A model generated the notes under the pieces. That model did not search any database and was not told the origin of the DNA. It saw only the letters and a list, made by a program, of their open reading frames with translations. From an uncultured Gammaproteobacteria bacterium (GTDB lineage Bacteria > Patescibacteriota > Microgenomatia > UBA10105 > UBA927), in NCBI GenBank assembly GCA_964400835.1, contig CAYNWD010000002.1, positions 25,604-77,610 of the forward strand: DNA of 52,007 bases, given 5' to 3'. How positions within the stretch are numbered: position 1 is the first letter of the stretch; each line of letters begins with the position of its first letter. The position numbers were made by a program, and so were the translations under genes. Shown piece after piece: positions 13,881-45,187 of this stretch.

Positions 13881-14456
13881 CTAGGAAAGTACCAGCGCGC
13901 CCTGCCGGACTATCCGATACGGCGCAACAGAACAATCAACTACAGTCGAGACATTGCCGGCACTGGACTCTCCGGGAACCACATAATCAACAAGCTTCAC
14001 GAGCCCGGGATCAAGTTCTGTCAGCCGAAAGGGGGTGGGAGCGCCATGAAAATTTGCAGACGGGCCCAAAATGGGTACCCCGACGGCTTTGATTATTGCA
14101 TGTACCGCTTCGTGATCCGGCATTCTCACTCCCAGTGTGTTTCCCGCGCCGCGAATAGGGGAGTAAATCAGCTCTTTTTTACACGCAGCGATAATGGTAA
14201 GAGCTCCGGGCCAATACGTATCCATAAAATGTCGCACAATATTTGAGGGTGACGAAAGATAGGCGAGTGCCATTTTCTTTGAACTGACCAAAACAGGCGT
14301 TGCTTTTGTCCTGGGCCGCTTCCGAAGCAAAAAAAGCCGGTCAACCGCGCGGTGGTTGTCTATCCGGCACCCTATGCCCAGCGCCGTATCGGTAGGAAAT
14401 ATTATTATTCCACCTTTGTTTAGGACTTTAACAGCTTTCCGTACATCTGAATTCAT
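13881..14456 (-). CDS. tsaC: L-threonylcarbamoyladenylate synthase (YrdC/TsaC)
   Basis: KGGIIIFPTDTALGIGC and SANFHGAPTP motifs. 191 aa. Confidence 0.88.
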   Translation of the reverse strand: MNSDVRKAVKVLNKGGIIIFPTDTALGIGCRIDNHRAVDRLFLLRKRPRTKATPVLVSSKKMALAYLSSPSNIVRHFMDTYWPGALTIIAACKKELIYSPIRGAGNTLGVRMPDHEAVHAIIKAVGVPILGPSANFHGAPTPFRLTELDPGLVKLVDYVVPGESSAGNVSTVVDCSVAPYRIVRQGALVLS

Positions 14457-14481
14457 AAACTTCCCCGACCTCAGCGGTCGG

Positions 14482-14574
14482 GGTTTTGTTGCGCTTTGTT
14501 CGCGCTTCGCGCGCTTTTTGTATGCGCTTCACCCATGACCGTACATGGTTAATGGTTTTCGCTTTCTTGCAATA
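14482..14574. repeat. Conserved structured intergenic element, copy A (homolog at 35334..35422)
   Basis: Shares an identical 18-mer TTGTTCGCGCTTCGCGCG (14496..14513 and 35349..35366) and GGTTTTCGCT (14554..14563 and 35402..35411). Also shares a hairpin with compensatory arm changes. Both copies sit between a stop and the next minus-strand start. Confidence 0.7.
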
Positions 14575-14593
14575 AAAACTCAAATTCTAGTAA

Positions 14594-15061
14594 TTAGAAA
14601 TTAGTTCCTTTGATGGTTATTTCATGCTCACCCTCATGGAGGACTCGAAAATGTATGTCCAATCGCCGTTCGGGCATCAGATTCCCAAGTTTCTCTGCCC
14701 ATTCTATGGCAACAAACGATTTACGGTCGCGCAAAATTTCCGCTAAACCCAGTTCTCCCAGCTCAATTTCGGCTTGCAACCGGTAAAGATCAATGTGATA
14801 GAAAAACCGCAAAGGGGGTTTCAACTGATAACGTCGTACAATAATATACGTGGGGGAGAGAAGTCTCCCGGTAATTCCCAGTGCCCTGGCAAATCCCTGG
14901 ACAAACGTGGTTTTGCCGCTGCCCAGATCGCCATAGAGGCACACGCACCCCGCTGCAGTCTTTTTGTTTCCTCTTTCCTCTATCAGGTAACGCCCCAGCG
15001 CTTCGCCTGATTGCGAAGTTTCTTGGGCGCTTTTGGTAATATCTGTACGAGGAAATACCAT
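14594..15061 (-). CDS. tsaE: tRNA t6A ATPase TsaE
   Basis: GDLGSGKTTFVQGFARALGI P-loop. 155 aa. Confidence 0.88.
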   Translation of the reverse strand: MVFPRTDITKSAQETSQSGEALGRYLIEERGNKKTAAGCVCLYGDLGSGKTTFVQGFARALGITGRLLSPTYIIVRRYQLKPPLRFFYHIDLYRLQAEIELGELGLAEILRDRKSFVAIEWAEKLGNLMPERRLDIHFRVLHEGEHEITIKGTNF

Positions 15062-15396: not shown

Positions 15397-16264
15397 GAAT
15401 ATCTTTTGATTGAAAAAAACTGAGCCGTTTTTGCCAAAGAAAGTATACAGCGAGGATGGCACATCCTAAACCAATAAACAAGAGGCTTATGGCAACGGGC
15501 TTATACCACTGAATGGATTTTCCCTCCTCCTCACCTGTGGGTTCACCCGAGGGACCAGGAGTCGGACTTTCTGCAGTTACCTCGCCGAGCGTTTCTCCGC
15601 CTCCATCAGCCAGGCTCGGAACTATTGTCGCGGTTTTTGCAGCCGGCGTCGGCGTTTTGGTGGGACTAGATCCTGATGTGGGTGTTGCCGTATTGGCCGG
15701 GACAGGGGTGGGCGTCTTCGTAGGAGTGGGTGTTTTCGTGGGAGTGGGTGTTGCGGTGGGAGTCGGAGTAGGTGTGGGCGTTGATGTAGGAGCCAAGCTG
15801 ACACAGGAAACGGTTGACTTTGTCGGATCTTGGTCTTCCTGCCAGCTGCCGCCATCCGGAACTCGGCTAAATGATTTCCCCTCTGTCACAGACTTGTATG
15901 GGTAAGAATCTATCACTGTACCGCTTGAATCGAACAGCGTAGGCGTGTCAACGGTGCTATTGGTGCTACTGGTGTTATTGAGAAATGAGGAAAGATCCAG
16001 GTAGCAGGTATTTTTCGAAGGCAATATACCCGAAAGTGCTTTTTTTGCAGACCCAATATCTGATTCAAAGTCAATATCATCATCAAAAAAATATCCGGAG
16101 AAATCTACCGCTTCTTCATCCGGGTTATAAAATTCTACCCACTCATCACTATCGCCTGATCCGACGGGATTGGGTAAAAACTCATTGAGAACTACGGAGG
16201 CATACGCCTGTCCGGGAAGGACGAAGAGAAAGAAAGCGATGACAGCCAGCACCGACTGCCTCAC
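15380..16264 (-). CDS. Lamin-tail-domain (LTD) surface protein with a Pro/Thr-rich linker and C-terminal TM anchor
   Basis: Signal peptide, then VVLNEFLPNPVGSGDSDEWVEFYNP (LTD motif), a TPTPTPTPTATPTPTKTPTPTKTPTP linker, and a C-terminal hydrophobic helix. Confidence 0.8.
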   Translation of the reverse strand: MRQSVLAVIAFFLFVLPGQAYASVVLNEFLPNPVGSGDSDEWVEFYNPDEEAVDFSGYFFDDDIDFESDIGSAKKALSGILPSKNTCYLDLSSFLNNTSSTNSTVDTPTLFDSSGTVIDSYPYKSVTEGKSFSRVPDGGSWQEDQDPTKSTVSCVSLAPTSTPTPTPTPTATPTPTKTPTPTKTPTPVPANTATPTSGSSPTKTPTPAAKTATIVPSLADGGGETLGEVTAESPTPGPSGEPTGEEEGKSIQWYKPVAISLLFIGLGCAILAVYFLWQKRLSFFQSKDIHEDTS

Positions 16265-34687: not shown

Positions 34688-35308
34688 CTAATTCCGCTGC
34701 GTCAAATAACTCATAAGTAGAGGCTTCAACTTATGAAGCGCATGTCTGCGGTGGTTATATTTTTCTGTTTCCGCAGGAGTCAAAAGATCGTGGTTGTAAT
34801 ATTTTTTGATCACAGGGAGGTACAATATGGATCTATAAGGAAACCCTGCTACCCGCTCCGGGGAGGGATTTTCCGGAATGATGCCGCGCGTTGCTGCAGT
34901 CGCCGTATGGACCTCGCCGTTGGGAAGAACGAGTGCTAGGACCGCCCGCAGCTGCGCGCCTCGCTTCGCTCGGGGCAAACCCTTCATTCGTTTGAACGTA
35001 TATTCTATAAGCTCTTCGTCCCCGCTCTCTTTCAGTGGATCTATCCACCGGTGAGACCGGATTCCCGGCTCACCGCCCAGCGCGTCAATTTCAAATCCGC
35101 CATCGTCAGCAATCGTCGCTAACTTTGATTTCTCCGCATAGAATTTTGCCTTCAGAATGGCATTCTCCTCAAACGTCGCTCCGCTCTCCTCGACGTTATT
35201 TGAAATCCCGATATCGCCCAGGCTCACCATCTCGACCGGCAAATCCGAGAGAAATCTCCTGATTTCCTCAAGTTTTCCGGGATTTGTGGTTGCAATAAGC
35301 AATTTCAT
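34688..35308 (-). CDS. rdgB: Non-canonical purine NTP pyrophosphatase (RdgB/HAM1, XTP/dITP diphosphatase)
   Basis: MKLLIATTNPGKLEEI and DDGGFEIDALGGEPGIRS motifs. Confidence 0.9.
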   Translation of the reverse strand: MKLLIATTNPGKLEEIRRFLSDLPVEMVSLGDIGISNNVEESGATFEENAILKAKFYAEKSKLATIADDGGFEIDALGGEPGIRSHRWIDPLKESGDEELIEYTFKRMKGLPRAKRGAQLRAVLALVLPNGEVHTATAATRGIIPENPSPERVAGFPYRSILYLPVIKKYYNHDLLTPAETEKYNHRRHALHKLKPLLMSYLTQRN

Positions 35309-35333
35309 AAAAATCCGACGACCTTACGCTCGC

Positions 35334-35422
35334 GGTTTTTGAAACGCCTTGTTCGCGCTTCGCGCGGATTTGTGCGTTTCATCCACGTGCCTTACGGTCG
35401 TGGTTTTCGCTCTCTTGTTATA
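35334..35422. repeat. Conserved structured intergenic element, copy B (homolog of 14482..14574)
   Basis: Same conserved blocks as copy A. Hairpin arms are CCACG/CGTGG (35383..35403) here and CCATG/CATGG (14533..14548) in copy A. Confidence 0.7.
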
Positions 35423-35461
35423 ATCTAGCTTCGCAAGGGGACGCCTTGCGAGGCCAATTTT

Positions 35462-36049
35462 TTAAAGGCCTAGTGCTTCGTGTATTTCCTGCATCGCGGT
35501 CAATGCTATCCCTACGAATTCAGAGAGAGGAATGTCCAGCTCTTTTTCGCAATGGAGAATGTTTTCACGAATTGCACCGGCCGCAAAAGACTTTATGGAA
35601 AATTTCTTCATGACCGACTCGACAGTCAACGATTGCAGCTTACTCTGCCCTGAGCCTGTCGAAGGGTCCGGACGCACCAATGCACACGCAGTGATTAAAC
35701 CGGAGAGCTCATCTGCACAGTAAAGACTCCACTCCATCTTGGTCTCAGGCTTGGGCAAATCCTCCCGCCATCCCCATGCATGCGCTCTGACCGCCGCAAT
35801 CACCCGGGAGTCTGCTCCTCGTTTGGCTAGCTCATCGAAAATAACCGATGGATGTTGCTTCGGATCACCATCTTTGAATTGTTCATAATCTGCATCGTGA
35901 ACCAATCCCGCAATTCTATAAAGCCCCTCATCTTCGTTGAAATGCTTGGCCAACGCAGCCATAATGGCCTCCACTGCAAGCATATGCTTCACCAAATTCG
36001 GATTTTTAGTCCACTGGATTACCAACTCGTAGGCATCTGCGCGGGTCAT
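35462..36049 (-). CDS. HD domain phosphohydrolase
   Basis: VKHMLAVEAIM...GLVHDADYE (H...HD...D pattern). 195 aa. Confidence 0.75.
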   Translation of the reverse strand: MTRADAYELVIQWTKNPNLVKHMLAVEAIMAALAKHFNEDEGLYRIAGLVHDADYEQFKDGDPKQHPSVIFDELAKRGADSRVIAAVRAHAWGWREDLPKPETKMEWSLYCADELSGLITACALVRPDPSTGSGQSKLQSLTVESVMKKFSIKSFAAGAIRENILHCEKELDIPLSEFVGIALTAMQEIHEALGL

Positions 36050-40412: not shown

Positions 40413-40441
40413 ATTGTACCCAACTTCCCTTGCCCTGTCAA
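40413..40441 (-). promoter_or_regulatory. greA promoter TTGACA-17-TACAAT
   Basis: The minus strand reads TTGACAGGGCAAGGGAAGTTGGGTACAAT. Its -35 abuts the -35 of the divergent tRNA-Glu promoter. Confidence 0.7.
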
Positions 40442-40458
40442 GGCCAAGCTGATAGAAT
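40430..40458 (+). promoter_or_regulatory. tRNA-Glu promoter TTGCCC-17-TAGAAT
   Basis: The -10 ends 9 nt before the first tRNA nucleotide. Confidence 0.6.
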
Positions 40459-41994
40459 CAAATCCGCGCCGCGTTCGTCTAGAGGCCCAGGACGACAGGT
40501 TCTCAACCTGTAAATCACCGGTTCGAATCCGGTACGCGGTACCAAAGTTGATTTTTGATCCAATGACTTCTGTATTAGAGCAAAAGGAAGGCCTAATTGC
40601 TCGGTTCCAATAAGTCCGTCCTTATAGACAATACCCTTTGGAAACAATAAGGCTTGGAACATCTGTTTGTGTCCAAAGGTTGCTTCTAACCAAATTGAGG
40701 CTACGTTATTAAATAGGCTCTCGGAAAAGGCAACTAAATAATCTATATCAGTCTCTTCAGTCCTTGCTTCTGATCGCTCAACTTCCTTGATAACAAGCTC
40801 TTCTTTAATAGCCTGATTCTGCTCTCTGTAATCGTCATCACTAATAATGCCCTCTAGATTTTTGCGAACCAGCTTTGTTTGTAGCTCTTTTAGCACAGCG
40901 ATATTTCCATCTATGCGTTTCACCGAATCAATAGCCTCGCTTTGTTTCTGCTTCCAAACGTCATATAGAACCTCTTGAAACAATCGTTGAAACTGCTTGT
41001 TTGGTTGAATTCTCTTTAAAGCATCAAAGAAAACTTGTTCAAACAGTTCTTTGGAGACTCTGGTTTTGCCACACAAGCAATGATAATACGCATATCGTTT
41101 ATTCCTTCCTCTAGATCGGCTAGCAGTTAAACCTTTACCACAGTGTTCACATTTAGCAATATTCTTCAAAGGAAAATCAGGATTATTTAATAATCTAGGA
41201 ACAGCAGTAAAAGATACGCCTTCTCGTATTTGTTGGACTTTGTAGAATAATTCTGGGCTTATGAGTTTTGAATGAAGGCCATCTATATCCACTCCCCAGT
41301 CTTTGACCGTAAGACGGCCAATGTAGAGCTTATTTTGAAGCATATTAGCGACCGCTTGAGTAGATATTCGGTTACCGTTTTTTGTTCTGACACCCCATGA
41401 GTTCAGCTTAGATGCTATATCTTTTAATCTATGACCCCCTTGAGCGTACACTTCAAATGCCTTTTTGATATACGGTGCTGTCTGTTTATCAATAACTAAA
41501 CCTGCCTTTGTATTCTTGTAACCCAAGGGAGCACCCCATGCCCATAACCCTTGGTTGACCCTTTCCTTTAATCCTTCTTTTGTTCGCTCCGCTCTAATAT
41601 CGTTATCTAGCTGTGCAACCGCTGCATAAATAGTCCCCATAAAATTGCCCTGGGAAGTATCGTCTATTGGCTCTGTAACGGATCTAAGAATAATATTATG
41701 CGCTATTAAGGTGGTCTTGATTGCAAGATAGTCTGCAGCTATACGAGAAACGCGATCAATTTTATGAACTAAAACAACGTCAGTTTCTTTTCTATGTTTA
41801 TTGCAAAATTCAAGAAGCTTAAGTAATTGTGTTCTGTTTGCGCTTTTCGCTGATTCTCCTTGCTCTTGAAAGACTCCAACAACTTCCCAGCCTTGTTTAT
41901 TGGCGTACTCTCTACAAATATTTTCCTGATAAGTTAAGCTATACCCTTCAACTTGTTCTTTTGTTGATACGCGGGTATAAATAACAACTTTCAT
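40438..41994 (-). CDS. Large serine recombinase (integrase); the last ~35 codons read antisense through tRNA-Glu
   Basis: MKVVIYTRVSTKEQ (catalytic Ser), recombinase domain, zinc ribbon CEHCGKGL...YYHCLC, coiled-coil region. The ORF continues past the compositional boundary at 40545. Confidence 0.85.
   Translation of the reverse strand: MKVVIYTRVSTKEQVEGYSLTYQENICREYANKQGWEVVGVFQEQGESAKSANRTQLLKLLEFCNKHRKETDVVLVHKIDRVSRIAADYLAIKTTLIAHNIILRSVTEPIDDTSQGNFMGTIYAAVAQLDNDIRAERTKEGLKERVNQGLWAWGAPLGYKNTKAGLVIDKQTAPYIKKAFEVYAQGGHRLKDIASKLNSWGVRTKNGNRISTQAVANMLQNKLYIGRLTVKDWGVDIDGLHSKLISPELFYKVQQIREGVSFTAVPRLLNNPDFPLKNIAKCEHCGKGLTASRSRGRNKRYAYYHCLCGKTRVSKELFEQVFFDALKRIQPNKQFQRLFQEVLYDVWKQKQSEAIDSVKRIDGNIAVLKELQTKLVRKNLEGIISDDDYREQNQAIKEELVIKEVERSEARTEETDIDYLVAFSESLFNNVASIWLEATFGHKQMFQALLFPKGIVYKDGLIGTEQLGLPFALIQKSLDQKSTLVPRTGFEPVIYRLRTCRPGPLDERGADLILSAWP
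40468..40544 (+). tRNA. tRNA-Glu (anticodon CUC), CCA encoded
   Basis: Folded by hand. Acceptor GCCGCGU/ACGCGGU; D arm GUCU-AGAGGCCCA-GGAC; anticodon stem ACAGG/CCUGU with loop UUCUCAA; T arm ACCGG-UUCGAAU-CCGGU; discriminator A; CCA. Confidence 0.92.
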
Positions 41995-42004
41995 GGGTTG
42001 AGGA

Positions 42005-42202
42005 TCACTTTTCATATTGGGTGTTCTTGGGTGGGGAGTCAATAACCCCAAGTTGTTTATTGGAACCTTTTGAGCCTACAACTGAAGATATTATTTCTGC
42101 TAAAGAGTAAAATTGAGCCAATAAATCTTGAACATCTCTGTCCGACATGCTCCTATACTCACCCCCTAATATTTTTCTTGCTTTGCTTACAGTAACCGCC
42201 AT
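42005..42202 (-). CDS. Small hypothetical protein (65 aa) upstream of the recombinase, possible directionality/DNA-binding factor
   Basis: Trimmed to MAVTVSKARKILGGEYRSMSDRDVQDLLAQF. Its own promoter lies upstream. Function is an inference from position only. Confidence 0.4.
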   Translation of the reverse strand: MAVTVSKARKILGGEYRSMSDRDVQDLLAQFYSLAEIISSVVGSKGSNKQLGVIDSPPKNTQYEK

Positions 42203-42296
42203 AAAAAAAGCACTACCTTTCCAGACCAATCCAGGTCAGGGAAAAGTAATGCCTCGCGGCACGGTGGCTCAATGCCCCTATTACTGTATGAAATCA

Positions 42297-42325
42297 ATAC
42301 TACCGCGTCATTTAAAAGTTGTCAA
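42297..42325 (-). promoter_or_regulatory. Promoter TTGACA-17-TAGTAT for the small ORF plus recombinase
   Basis: The minus strand reads TTGACAACTTTTAAATGACGCGGTAGTAT. Confidence 0.65.
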
Positions 42326-42346
42326 TTTTATAAAGGGGATATGCCT

Positions 42347-43210
42347 CTATTGGGTAACAAGTGGTTTATTTGATCTTGGTTTCTCTCCTTTTTTTAGTCC
42401 AGTGAGTGACGGAAATATGAGATAATCTTTTTTTAGAATTGAGCAGTATATTTCAAAAACACTGTCAAAAGATAAAAGTGTAAAGTATTGCGGACACTCC
42501 AAAGCTATAACCGCGTCTCCAAGTTTTAAGCATCTTGTTTTCATATCTGATCGTTTATAGTCAGCTTTTATTTCAGAAAAGATACTTAGGTGATTTTTAA
42601 AATCTCTATGAGTACCGTATTTACCGTTAACATTTTTATCCAAAAACATATCAAGAATAGCGCTCTGTTTTATCCAAAATTTCTCTTGACCACATTGACC
42701 AACACAACGAATATCTTCAGTGAACTTATGGAATCCATCTTCGGTGAATTCAAGGTCTACCTTGTTAGTTTTGAAACCAGAGTTGTTAGCCACATATCCA
42801 TCAATTATTTCTTCAAATAACCAGTAGAATTGCAAGATATAGCTGTAAACAATAGCAAGTGCCTTATCTTTGTTATCAATTGCCTCTTTGTTCTTAATAA
42901 GTTCGCTAAGAAATAACAGAATTTCTTTTAAATCTCTTGTAGAACGACTTACGTTACTAAACACATTAATTGCGTCAGAAAGTGATGCTTCTTCGCGTAA
43001 TATAAAATAGAAATTGATTAATGGAACAATGAGTGCCTCCTTAAACTCGCGAAAAATAAAAAGGGAAGAAAATTTCTTTGAATTAACTAAAATACTTTCT
43101 ATGAGCTGTTTCTGTGAAGGGTGACCCAGCAATCGCTTTATTTGAATTGAAGTCTCAAGATAATACTGGTCTTTAGGACTCGCTTCATGTGGTTTTCTTT
43201 TCTTCTTCAT
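42347..43210 (-). CDS. Island gene C: hypothetical 287-aa protein, possible split PIN-like nuclease fold
   Basis: N-terminal YYLETSIQIKRLLG and C-terminal LGDAVIALECPQYFTLLSFDSVF resemble the first and last acidic motifs of PIN domains, separated by a long insert. Weak, by eye only. Confidence 0.5.
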   Translation of the reverse strand: MKKKRKPHEASPKDQYYLETSIQIKRLLGHPSQKQLIESILVNSKKFSSLFIFREFKEALIVPLINFYFILREEASLSDAINVFSNVSRSTRDLKEILLFLSELIKNKEAIDNKDKALAIVYSYILQFYWLFEEIIDGYVANNSGFKTNKVDLEFTEDGFHKFTEDIRCVGQCGQEKFWIKQSAILDMFLDKNVNGKYGTHRDFKNHLSIFSEIKADYKRSDMKTRCLKLGDAVIALECPQYFTLLSFDSVFEIYCSILKKDYLIFPSLTGLKKGEKPRSNKPLVTQ

Positions 43211-43853
43211 AATGCTCTTCGTACGGAAATAAGTTTAATCCGGTTTTTTGAAGGCTGATCGTGGCGATTTTAACGTCTTTCAATTCAATGTCATTACTCA
43301 ATAGCAATGCAGTGACTGAAACCAACGCCTTCGCTTGTTGGACGTCTATATTACGCCATAAATTAAATCTCATTATTGAATCAACAGTGCTCACCAACAT
43401 TGAGAAATGTTCATCATTACCAGTATAATTCCAAATTTCATTAATTAAATCTTTAACTTTAGAATAATACATTGCGCTTTCTGGCTGGCCTAAATTAGTC
43501 GCGAATTTATTCAATTCCTCAAACATCGTCTGAAGAAGAGGTTGTCTTTTTATTTTCCTATATGCCAAAGATTGGCGTACATCGGCTGGCTGCGCAGTTG
43601 CTGGTTCGTCAATTTGCATCTGACTTGCCAGGGTTTGTGGTTTTTCCGTTTTAATAACAACTGGCTCACTATAAGTGCCTATTGGCATCCATTCTGCAGA
43701 TGAGATTTTCGGGGTTTCCTCTTGGTGTAAAGGGTATACATTATCACCAAACACAATTGAAGTTCTTGAGTGACCTGAATATTCAGCTACTTTTAACGAA
43801 GCCGCATAAGTAAAGTCTTGATTTAAGTGGTAATGAATTGGTACGGTGCTCAT
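43185..43853 (-). CDS. Island gene B: hypothetical 222-aa protein, no recognisable domain
   Basis: ATGA overlap with gene A and a 26-nt overlap with gene C. N-terminal beta-like part, low-complexity linker, helical C-terminal half. Confidence 0.5.
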   Translation of the reverse strand: MSTVPIHYHLNQDFTYAASLKVAEYSGHSRTSIVFGDNVYPLHQEETPKISSAEWMPIGTYSEPVVIKTEKPQTLASQMQIDEPATAQPADVRQSLAYRKIKRQPLLQTMFEELNKFATNLGQPESAMYYSKVKDLINEIWNYTGNDEHFSMLVSTVDSIMRFNLWRNIDVQQAKALVSVTALLLSNDIELKDVKIATISLQKTGLNLFPYEEHYEEEKKTT

Positions 43854-44536
43854 GCTTTTGAGGGAATCAGTTTTAAAGATTCTTGAACTGTTGAACTAAC
43901 TAATTTCCTTATTTCTGTTATGTATCTATTAAGATCCCTAGCTCTACAATCTTTATCTTTATATCCATCAACATCCAAATAAGTCATAACTTCTGAAAGG
44001 CCTTCAGAATCTAACTCAAACTTTGTATTTGGGCCAAATTTAGCGAGGCCCTCATCTTTTGAAACTGGTCCGAATAAATAATGAAACTTATAGTTCTCTC
44101 TTTCAAAATCTGCACTAAAAACAGCGTCAGAGATTTTCTGACCAACTATAGCCTCAATTTCCTTATCTTTTGGATAAAACTTTTCTTGAAATAAAGAAAC
44201 CAATTCTGGATATTTTAGTGCAGTTTTATTCAAAAGAGTGTGTCTTATACCTACCCTCAAAATATCGGTAAGTGGGAGTTTTGAAGTATAAGTGGTGATA
44301 ACGAATTCAAGAAAAGCGAAAAATTTATCCTCATCTTTAACATCGTCACAAATAACTGCTAATCTTTTGTGTTCAAGAAAGCATGCGAGTTTTTCTTTCT
44401 TGTCAAAGAGATCTATCTTAAGAGCATTCGTTTCCCAGTCGGGAAGCGTTTTATTGATTTCAGCCCCTATTTCATCTTTGAATCGGTAGAATAGCAGATT
44501 GGGCTTTATGACAAGCTCCACAACGATTCGTTTCAT
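43850..44536 (-). CDS. Island gene A: hypothetical 228-aa protein (size and an RVGIRH motif recall the uncharacterised TIGR04255 family; unverified)
   Basis: First gene of the operon. Leaderless-type promoter directly upstream. Confidence 0.5.
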   Translation of the reverse strand: MKRIVVELVIKPNLLFYRFKDEIGAEINKTLPDWETNALKIDLFDKKEKLACFLEHKRLAVICDDVKDEDKFFAFLEFVITTYTSKLPLTDILRVGIRHTLLNKTALKYPELVSLFQEKFYPKDKEIEAIVGQKISDAVFSADFERENYKFHYLFGPVSKDEGLAKFGPNTKFELDSEGLSEVMTYLDVDGYKDKDCRARDLNRYITEIRKLVSSTVQESLKLIPSKA

Positions 44537-44543
44537 CAGTCTG

Positions 44544-44572
44544 ATTATATACCTCTAAGACTTAGTATTCAA
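44544..44572 (-). promoter_or_regulatory. Promoter TTGAAT-17-TATAAT with a CTAAG-N-CTTAG palindrome (44555..44565) in the spacer; the -10 ends 7 nt before the gene A ATG
   Basis: The minus strand reads TTGAATACTAAGTCTTAGAGGTATATAATCAGACTGATG. Confidence 0.7.
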
Positions 44573-44598
44573 GAAAACTCTACCAAAATATCAGTGCT

Positions 44599-44802
44599 CT
44601 ATTTTATTAAGGTTTCTAAAGCAGTATTGAGAGCCTTAGCGATCTTGGTTAATGTCTTAATGGTAGGATTGCGCTTGCCCAGTTCAATTGAGATAACAGA
44701 CTTAGGATCCACTTTGGAAAATTCCGCTAACTTTTCTTGAGTTAGGCCTTTTTGCCTACGAAGGTTCCGAATTCTTTCACCAAGCTTTTTGTAACTTGCC
44801 AT
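44599..44802 (-). CDS. XRE-family helix-turn-helix transcriptional regulator
   Basis: GERIRNLRRQKGLTQEKLAEFSKVDPKSVISIELGKRNPTIKTLTKIAKAL is a canonical Cro/CI HTH. 67 aa. Confidence 0.88.
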   Translation of the reverse strand: MASYKKLGERIRNLRRQKGLTQEKLAEFSKVDPKSVISIELGKRNPTIKTLTKIAKALNTALETLIK

Positions 44803-44890
44803 ATTGACTCAAATATGGCGTATATGCCAGACTACGAACAGGAAATATATTCCAGATTTATTGATAAAAATACTGCTACGACAATATAAA

Positions 44891-45187
44891 ATGATGAAAA
44901 AACTAGAATACAATTTTGAGGACAGCTTATTTGAGAATATTTTTAATATCCTTCTTATAGCTAGTGCCGTCTCTGTGATAACTAGTCTCTCTTCATTTCC
45001 TCTTTTAAGTGCAATTGAATTTATCGTGGGTTTGTTTAATAAAGATGCGTTTGCTTATGTGACTGATAAATATGAGCCATTCAGGATTAGTGTATTCAGC
45101 GGTTTTTTGGGTTCTATTTTTACTTTCGCGTATTTGACAGTTAATGAGTGGCATAAATCCCGTCAGAGAGGGGGTGAGGCTACATGA
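44891..45187 (+). CDS. Small 2-3 TM membrane protein, unknown function
   Basis: Start taken at the ATG (MMKKLEYNF) rather than the TTG at 44804. Hydrophobic segments ILLIASAVSVITSL and VFSGFLGSIFTFAYL. Confidence 0.45.
   Translation: MMKKLEYNFEDSLFENIFNILLIASAVSVITSLSSFPLLSAIEFIVGLFNKDAFAYVTDKYEPFRISVFSGFLGSIFTFAYLTVNEWHKSRQRGGEAT

Follow-up and report, generated by a model that had tools for sequence, protein, structure and literature searches.

The insertion sequences of the IS200/IS605 family and their gene-less derivatives, the palindrome-associated transposable elements (PATEs), are the described systems that come closest to the repeat analyzed here. PATEs are small and non-coding (PMC3119063, PMC7290912), as is this repeat. 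The hairpin distances in IS608 are 19 nt and 10 nt (PMC3201880), and the top strands of IS200/IS605 elements show a preference for the lagging-strand template (PMC5027513). A second relevant group consists of the REP sequences, which have a GTAG/CGTC head (PMC3733652) and which are reported to be targets of insertion sequences (PMC1525189). We compared with these systems a structured intergenic element from a window of 52,007 nucleotides, the term window being used here for the whole stretch of DNA that was analyzed. An initial annotation had noted two copies of this element upstream of tsaC and rdgB and had proposed a riboswitch or leader, with a small structured repeat family as the fallback. 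Our analyses show that the element is a lineage-specific insertion in Gottesmanbacteria (candidate phyla radiation, CPR) and not a regulator.

Two homologous copies in the window

The homology between the two intergenic stretches is real. Positions 14455-14571 and 35307-35419 of the window aligned in blastn with 73% identity over 112 nt (E 5e-10), and a blastn search of the spacers against the whole window returned no third copy. There are exactly two occurrences of the shared 18-mer TTGTTCGCGCTTCGCGCG in the window, at 14496-14513 and at 35349-35366, the chance expectation being about 0.1 matches even if three mismatches are allowed. A MAFFT alignment of copies 1 and 2 displayed the shared blocks and the compensatory hairpin CCATG/CATGG versus CCACG/CGTGG, and the other structures that had been noted, a CGCGC-TTC-GCGCG hairpin and a hairpin at 14463-14483, were present as well. 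The extent of the unit needed correction, since it is longer than the stretch of about 90 nt that was first given (14482-14574 and 35334-35422). Copy 1 is 117 nt long (14455-14571, minus strand), as determined by aligning it with copy 2 and with the nine copies from other loci, and scores 109.5 bits with our covariance model R1; copy 2 is 113 nt long (35307-35419, minus strand), as determined by alignment and blastn, and scores 131.4 bits. Three hairpins are common to both copies, and the one that had been taken for a further, separate hairpin before the start codon is the third hairpin of the homologous unit.

Pfam assignments confirmed tsaC/YrdC and rdgB as flanking genes. Copy 1 lies between tsaE (14594-15061; TsaE) and tsaC (13881-14456; Sua5/YrdC), which is followed by a TsaB-like gene and a CAP gene. 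Copy 2 lies between an HD gene (35462-36049), which is preceded by a LysRS gene, and rdgB (34688-35308; Ham1/RdgB), which is followed by a SerRS gene. Each copy has the same orientation as its operon and will be included in the operon transcript.

Copy 2 is abutted by a separate REP-like hairpin, GCTTCGCAAGG-GGACG-CCTTGCGAGGC (35428-35454, plus strand), and the same hairpin flanks Y1/RAYT-like genes in other Microgenomates. In the form (C/G/T)TAG-CTTCGCAAGG-GGACG-CCTTGCGAAG this hairpin was observed beside copy 2 and also in loci L267-L270, L273, L288-L290 and L296. The 14-mer AAGGGGACGCCTTG occurs on both sides of Y1/RAYT-like genes in Levy-, Davies-, Shapiro- and other Microgenomates loci, sometimes a third time inside the Y1 gene, and the loop of the REP hairpin is inverted in some copies. 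The AAGGGGACGCCTTG hairpin has the appearance of a REP that is widely conserved and belongs to a RAYT family of the CPR. Two further features of the window were observed. A large serine recombinase gene (Resolvase, Recombinase and Zn ribbon domains; 40438-42051, minus strand) lies beside or overlaps a tRNA gene (40468-40541, plus strand) and is followed by a stretch of low G+C content (0.38 versus 0.50), and the region 40438-45000 is probably an integrated element at the tRNA. Imperfect tandem repeats of 18-48 nt (GTGGGTGTTGC...) at 15678-15792 form a repetitive coding segment within a Lamin-tail-domain (LTD) gene.

Organization and ends of the element

Read on its top strand, which is the minus strand of the window, the element is about 115 nt long, with a range of 105-150 nt across copies. 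A T-rich host flank ending in TTAT is followed by the element start (A/T)NNCAAGAGAGCGAAAA, a segment of 16-17 nt that ends in GCGAAAA. Next comes hairpin 1, of the form CC......GG, usually with 8 bp and in most copies with a GTAA loop. The sequence GGATGAAG(CGC) and a variable stretch then lead to the GC-rich central hairpin CGCGC-GAA-GCGCG, which contains GCGAAGC; in other subfamilies a different stem takes its place, the C-GAA-G mini-hairpin still being present. After AACAAGGCG..CAAAA follows hairpin 3, which resembles hairpin 1 and runs in the same direction, and the element closes with 8-9 nt ending in TTTAT, or, for the subfamily of L213 and L309, in TTCAT. On the minus strand, hairpins 1 and 3 each resemble CCNCGNNC-GTAA-GNNCGNGG, and they are direct, not inverted, repeats. 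There are 16-17 nt between the left junction and hairpin 1, and 8-9 nt between hairpin 3 and the right end.

In copy 1, the TTAT directly 5' of and outside the element (14572-14575, minus strand) is a putative target and left cleavage motif. The 5' subterminal hairpin 1 (CCATG-TACGGT-CATGG, 14533-14548), for which covariation across copies was seen, the central hairpin with GCGAAGC (14501-14513) and the 3' subterminal hairpin 3 (CCCCGACC-GCTGA-GGTCGGGG, 14463-14483), followed by AAGTTTAT, are all on the minus strand. The corresponding minus-strand features of copy 2 are a putative target motif TTAT directly 5' of the element (35420-35423), hairpin 1 (CCACGACC-GTAA-GGcaCGTGG, 35383-35403; read in the sequence and backed by covariation), the central CGCGC-GAA-GCGCG hairpin (35354-35366) and hairpin 3 (CCGCGAGC-GTAA-GGTCGtCGG, 35315-35335), followed by ATTTTTAT.

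A TTAT is present in the left flank of 9 of the 11 copies that we found in total, and in copy L213a, where it encodes part of N-K-N, it is proven to be host sequence. At the other end, the 3' GGAGTTTCAT is identical in copies L213a and L309 although their flanks differ; it is therefore borne by the element and is not a duplication, and consequently there is no target duplication beyond a possible 2-nt AT. These assignments, a host TTAT and an own 3' end, set the limits of the two window copies. Terminal inverted repeats are absent, as the 5' ends AACAAGAGAGCG and TGCAAGAAAGCG are not reverse complements of the 3' ends ...GGATTTTTAT and ...GGGGAAGTTTAT. The AT of AAGTTTAT in copy 1 is the start of the tsaC ATG, and the AT of ATTTTTAT in copy 2 is the start of the rdgB ATG. 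Both window insertions are at the TTAT/G of a start codon, and in both cases the TTTAT end of the element restored the ATG. Hairpin 3 has a G-rich 3' arm (GGGGAAG and CGGA), which is located 4-6 nt before the ATG, at the likely ribosome-binding region. The element may thus alter translation or cause partial termination at tsaC and rdgB, as a by-product of insertion and not as its purpose.

Copies at other loci

Further copies were searched for by scanning one-genome-per-species contigs with the exact 18-mer and with gapped patterns, by one metagenome scan, and then by blastn. The exact scan of GTDB genomes gave 72 matches, all but two of which represent chance in GC-rich genomes, and the gapped patterns added one locus from genomes and two from metagenomes. 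The gapped-pattern scan of viral contigs returned nothing real, and no match to the element was found in phage and plasmid collections. Five true homologues were singled out by blastn. L067 and L043 are two contigs of one MAG (CAYTZO01) whose copies are 95.5% identical over 112 nt, the likeness ending at the element ends; L074 is from MAG CAYHKY01, and L117 and L127 are from metagenomes. Covariance model R1, built from seven copies, found the diverged copies L213a and L213b (MAG CAZRUW01, E about 1e-7) and L268 as well as a partial copy in L192. Model R2, representing the 5' module, pointed to L309 from the same MAG as L213, and on reading the scaffold of L309 turned out to be nearly identical to that of L213a. 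Altogether, 11 copies were found in 6 genomes or metagenomes, which means nine copies in five other MAGs or metagenomes besides the two in the window.

The contexts of these copies are unrelated, and both orientations relative to genes occur. In L067 the copy lies at the 3' end of a YfhO-like gene and in L043 between a racemase gene and an unknown gene, in both cases in antisense orientation. In L074 the element follows the rplL terminator and is convergent with a phosphoesterase gene, in L127 it is convergent with rplL, and in L117 it follows a DUF2130 gene. The L309 copy is located between a Y1 gene and its 3' hairpin, and the L268 copy just after the REP-like hairpin of a Y1 gene. Such dispersal without regard to genes and strands, as for a REP- or MITE-like repeat, is what the initial annotation had named as refuting its proposal. 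The small structured repeat family that it had kept as its fallback is correct. Two apparent linkages were examined and dropped. Although two unbiased copies lie beside rplL, among the other rplL loci only L213 carries the element (80 loci fetched in all), and among 80 Y1 loci only L268, L309 and L330 do, L330 being the same locus as L213.

Judged by relatives of ribosomal protein L7/L12 and by protein names, the bearers are Patescibacteria of the Microgenomates group, mostly Gottesmanbacteria. Several of the records (L043, L067, L074, L213 and many other TPA MAGs) are titled 'uncultured Gammaproteobacteria bacterium'; on the basis of gene content and nearest relatives, these are mislabelled Patescibacteria/Microgenomates.

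Empty sites and an interrupted gene

The element is an insertion: it is missing from orthologous sites, and one of its copies splits an ORF. Related Gottesmanbacteria have kept the gene orders lysS-HD-rdgB-serS and tsaE-tsaC-tsaB-CAP, with spacers that range from overlapping to 78 nt and that do not contain the element. The spacer between the HD gene and rdgB measures 153 nt in the window; in L340/L341 (Gottesmanbacteria MFJV01) the two genes are 1 nt apart and in L338/L339 36 nt, and the lysS-rdgB spacer of L337 has 39 nt. Likewise, the 137 nt between tsaE and tsaC in the window contrast with an overlap of the two genes in L344 and with distances of 55 nt in L342 and 78 nt in L343, where the empty site reads GGATTTTATGG. 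A search of the 140 kb of relatives with those spacers using R1 returned zero copies. The 'empty' relatives are only about 70-76% identical in protein, and loss instead of gain is formally possible at these sites.

The split ORF is found in L213, where copy L213a interrupts a gene for a Y1_Tnp transposase (PF01797; IS200-like). This ORF reads MAAKNVIKRYAENGYYHLYNRGVN / 130-nt element / KNNIFLTEQDY, with residues 1-24 (...GYYHLYNRGVN) in one frame and, after 130 nt, KNNIFLTEQDYAVFL... in another. Three intact homologues (L213 752-1456, L198 and L216) are continuous through the split point, and the inserted 130 nt are the R1 match L213a. Since this ORF is split, orthologous sites are empty, and near-identical copies are present at different loci (L067/L043 and L213a/L309), we conclude that the element moves or has moved. 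We also observed that a different palindrome, AAAAAGAATCATTCTT-NNNN-AAGAATGATTCTTTTT, brackets the interrupted Y1 gene (L213 3195-3240 and 4040-4090). It may be the gene's own REP or a bidirectional terminator pair.

Conservation of the hairpins

The hairpins are kept by Watson-Crick compensatory changes. In the 11-copy alignment, 6 of the 8 pairs of hairpin 1 show double changes, 92% of the cells are paired, G-U pairs are completely absent, and one position displays all of A-U, U-A, G-C and C-G. For the structure as a whole, 0 of 500 shuffles reached the observed covariation and slid controls collapsed, with the caveat that the alignment is fitted to the model and that the number of copies (11) is small. 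Quasi-palindromes can gain 'compensatory' changes in one step through template switching, and therefore the covariation does not prove that an RNA is involved. Changes in the loop of hairpin 1 are accompanied by changes in that of hairpin 3, the pairs being GTAA/GTAA in four copies, GTTA/GTTA in L213a and TCT/TTCT in L309. In addition, the conserved GCGAAGC is, according to Hirao et al., reportedly an unusually stable DNA mini-hairpin. The lack of wobble pairs, the conserved GCGAAGC and the concerted loop changes make us lean toward a function in single-stranded DNA.

An RNA reading is nevertheless kept alive by the GNRA-type loops and the terminator-like 3' end. According to this alternative, which we regard as unlikely, the element would be a mobile or multi-copy small RNA gene, in which a structured RNA of about 115 nt with two GNRA-capped hairpins and an intrinsic terminator is made from the window minus strand, and in which the RNA and not the DNA is under selection. 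In most copies hairpins 1 and 3 carry their GTAA loops on one and the same strand, hairpin 3 with its T-run is terminator-like in L074, L117 and L127, and the unpaired blocks GCGAAAACC, GGATGAAG and CAAAA are conserved while the stems covary; these features suit an RNA as well as a DNA element. The folding z-scores of the minus strand (−3.7 and −4.2) also fit, but the opposite strand folds almost equally well (−3.1 and −3.5), and for this reason the choice of a strand by folding energy was dropped. Moreover, no sigma-70-like promoter was found on either strand at the window copies, and the upstream flanks are unrelated between copies. The missing G-U pairs in hairpin 1, the loss of the GNRA loops in L309 and L213a, the degraded T-run of copy 1 (AAGTTTAT), the one copy that disrupts an ORF and the lack of an Rfam match likewise speak against a small RNA gene.

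The comparison with Rfam that the initial annotation had in view yielded no matching family. At the gathering threshold, Rfam 15 recognized only a tRNA in the whole window, and E-value scans of both copies and six other loci gave chance-level matches only. The minus strands of the window copies match RF03015 (Transposase-2) weakly, with 15.2 and 11 bits, to be compared with a gathering score of 42.7. They share with the model the string GAAGCGCGAAC at its start; only 17 nt match while the rest of the structure does not, and RF03015 did not match the copies of the six other loci searched. Comparison of the element's consensus by eye showed no fit to a K-turn, hammerhead, tetraloop-receptor, SRP, tRNA-like or retron structure, and for a retron an adjacent reverse transcriptase is lacking as well. 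Outside the element, the sequences upstream of rplJ in L074 (1449-1570, 39.2 bits) and L213 (1828-1993, 26.3 bits) match the model of the ribosomal protein L10 leader (RF00557) below its gathering score of 44. Both are probably genuine, though diverged, L10 leaders.

The stems of L213a and L309, two copies from one MAG, deserve separate mention. The scaffolds of these copies are near-identical whereas the stems of hairpins 1 and 3 are wholly different, each being a perfect palindrome (GCTAGC-GTTA-GCTAGC in L213 3310-3480 versus ACAAGT-TCT-ACTTGT in L309 1878-2045). Stem turnover is thus far faster than that of the flanks, which hints at templated palindrome renewal as one possibility.

A model for mobility

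With good confidence we regard the element as mobile and non-autonomous. Each copy is probably a small non-autonomous transposable element with an organization matching that of IS200/IS605 and the PATEs. This layout is also what suggests mobilization in trans by a Y1 enzyme via a single-strand circle, but the Y1 single-strand mechanism in particular is proposed only tentatively. In such a model, the two subterminal hairpins would be bound in single-stranded DNA by a Y1 (HUH) transposase whose gene lies at another site of the genome, and this enzyme would cut after the flanking TTAT and after the terminal TYAT. The element would thereby be freed as a single-strand circle, which could be reinserted 3' of another TTAT ('peel and paste').

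Several observations bear on this model. Y1 genes are common in Microgenomates and are present in one element-bearing MAG, CAZRUW01 (L213, L309 and L313); in the window's own genome no Y1 gene was seen, only the REP-like hairpin. Microgenomates loci totalling about 1.3 Mb yielded no autonomous parent, that is no transposase gene flanked by the same ends. Around the Y1 genes observed in this group the flanking hairpin is another one, CTTCGCAAGG-GGACG-CCTTGCGAAG, and the covariance model finds the element beside only 3 of about 80 Y1 loci. Of the nine copies that were found without reference to Y1, three (copy 2, L213a and L213b) are no more than about 250 nt away from a Y1 gene or REP-like hairpin. 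GC skew identifies the G-rich minus strand of the window as the lagging-strand template, and the top strands of both window copies, although these are two copies only, are on this strand. The tetranucleotide 5' of the hairpin foot and the cleavage site are AAAA with TTAT in most copies and GATA with TCAT in L213a and L213b, combinations that are suggestive of a guide/cleavage-site pairing like that of IS608; L309, with CGGA and TCAT, departs from the L213a/L213b pattern. Lastly, stems differ between copies of one genome (copy 1 versus copy 2 of the window; L213a, L213b and L309), which is unexpected if one protein reads the stem sequence.

A more particular possibility, which we consider improbable, is that the copies represent either an undescribed CPR-specific lineage of HUH/Y1-type mini-transposons that imitates a translation start at its right end, or a functional mobile non-coding RNA with a three-hairpin core. 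For such a mini-transposon, the right end, with its G-rich Shine-Dalgarno-like arm, T-rich spacer and AT, would allow landing on TTAT/G and rebuilding of the start codon, and this could let it persist inside the tightly packed operons of tiny genomes.

Alternative origins of the repeat

It is doubtful that the element is a domesticated repeat of the REP/BIME type, spread by a RAYT (TnpA-REP) and used by the host for bidirectional termination or for the stabilization of mRNA. The arrangement of an A-run, a hairpin and a T-run, together with terminator-like calls on the plus strand and the copies after rplL terminators, would agree with this idea, and RAYT-like Y1 genes with (G)TAG-headed REP hairpins do exist in the clade, one such hairpin abutting copy 2. 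Yet the unit of 105-150 nt with three hairpins is not a palindrome of 20-40 nt, has no GTAG head, and possesses hairpins unlike the REP that flanks Y1 genes. Its copy number also looks low, as the 52 kb of the window contain 2 copies and the 140 kb searched in relatives contain none, and the window copies lie between co-transcribed genes, where a terminator would do harm.

There is very little chance that the element is a cis-regulatory leader or riboswitch of tsaC and rdgB, as had initially been suggested. What favors such a function is the position of both window copies, on the coding strand and directly upstream of a start codon, with hairpin 3 overlapping the likely ribosome-binding region. 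However, the orthologous 5' regions are empty in six related loci, and copies elsewhere are found after rplL, antisense (near the racemase and unknown genes and at the YfhO gene end) and inside a transposase ORF; no Rfam family matches either. The empty orthologous sites refute a conserved regulator of tsaC and rdgB and leave room only for a lineage-specific side effect on expression.

It is highly improbable that the element is a classical MITE mobilized by a DDE transposase, for the small size, the dispersal and the near-palindromic overall fold of copy 2 are offset by extreme ends that are not inverted repeats (TGCAAGAAAG... versus ...GGGGAAGTTTAT), an element-borne 3' end with no duplication longer than the ambiguous AT, and hairpins 1 and 3 that are direct instead of inverted repeats.

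Implications

Recognition of the element as an insertion strikes a false candidate from the possible riboswitches and leaders, and demonstrates that small structured mobile repeats occur even in very small and dense CPR genomes, where they lengthen operon spacers from 0-40 nt to about 150 nt. For annotation, it follows that such elements should not be taken for regulatory RNAs and that covariation in DNA palindromes can mimic conserved RNA structure. If the link to Y1 is true, single-strand transposition of the IS200/IS605 type and its non-autonomous derivatives extend to the Patescibacteria. Polymorphic insertion sites could be used as strain markers.

Comparison with known systems

ERIC, Correia/NEMIS, RUP, BOX and the Rickettsia palindromic elements resemble the present element in that they are structured, measure about 100-150 nt, are transcribed in operons and are sometimes located in genes. 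They differ from it by having inverted terminal repeats and/or target duplications, or modular boxes, and no sequence similarity of the element to any of them was found. With REP/BIME sequences and their RAYTs it shares the nature of an extragenic hairpin repeat that is linked to Y1 HUH enzymes and is located after genes and near terminators. In contrast to these, it is 3-5 times longer, has three hairpins, appears to have a low copy number, and is unrelated in sequence to the REP flanking Microgenomates Y1 genes.

The likeness to IS200/IS605 elements and PATEs concerns the absence of inverted terminal repeats and of an evident target duplication, the TTAT in the left flank and the comparable TTAT or TCAT with which the element closes, and a pair of like subterminal hairpins that share one strand and differ in their distance from the ends (16-17 and 8-9 nt). 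Unlike IS200/IS605, the element has an extra conserved central GC hairpin, its stems vary within a genome, and no transposase-bearing parent with its ends was encountered in the Microgenomates loci. No description of the element was found in Rfam or in the searchable literature, nor was a described CPR example of the IS200/IS605-PATE kind. Taken together, the element is an ordinary kind of mobile repeat that is undescribed in the Patescibacteria phylum.
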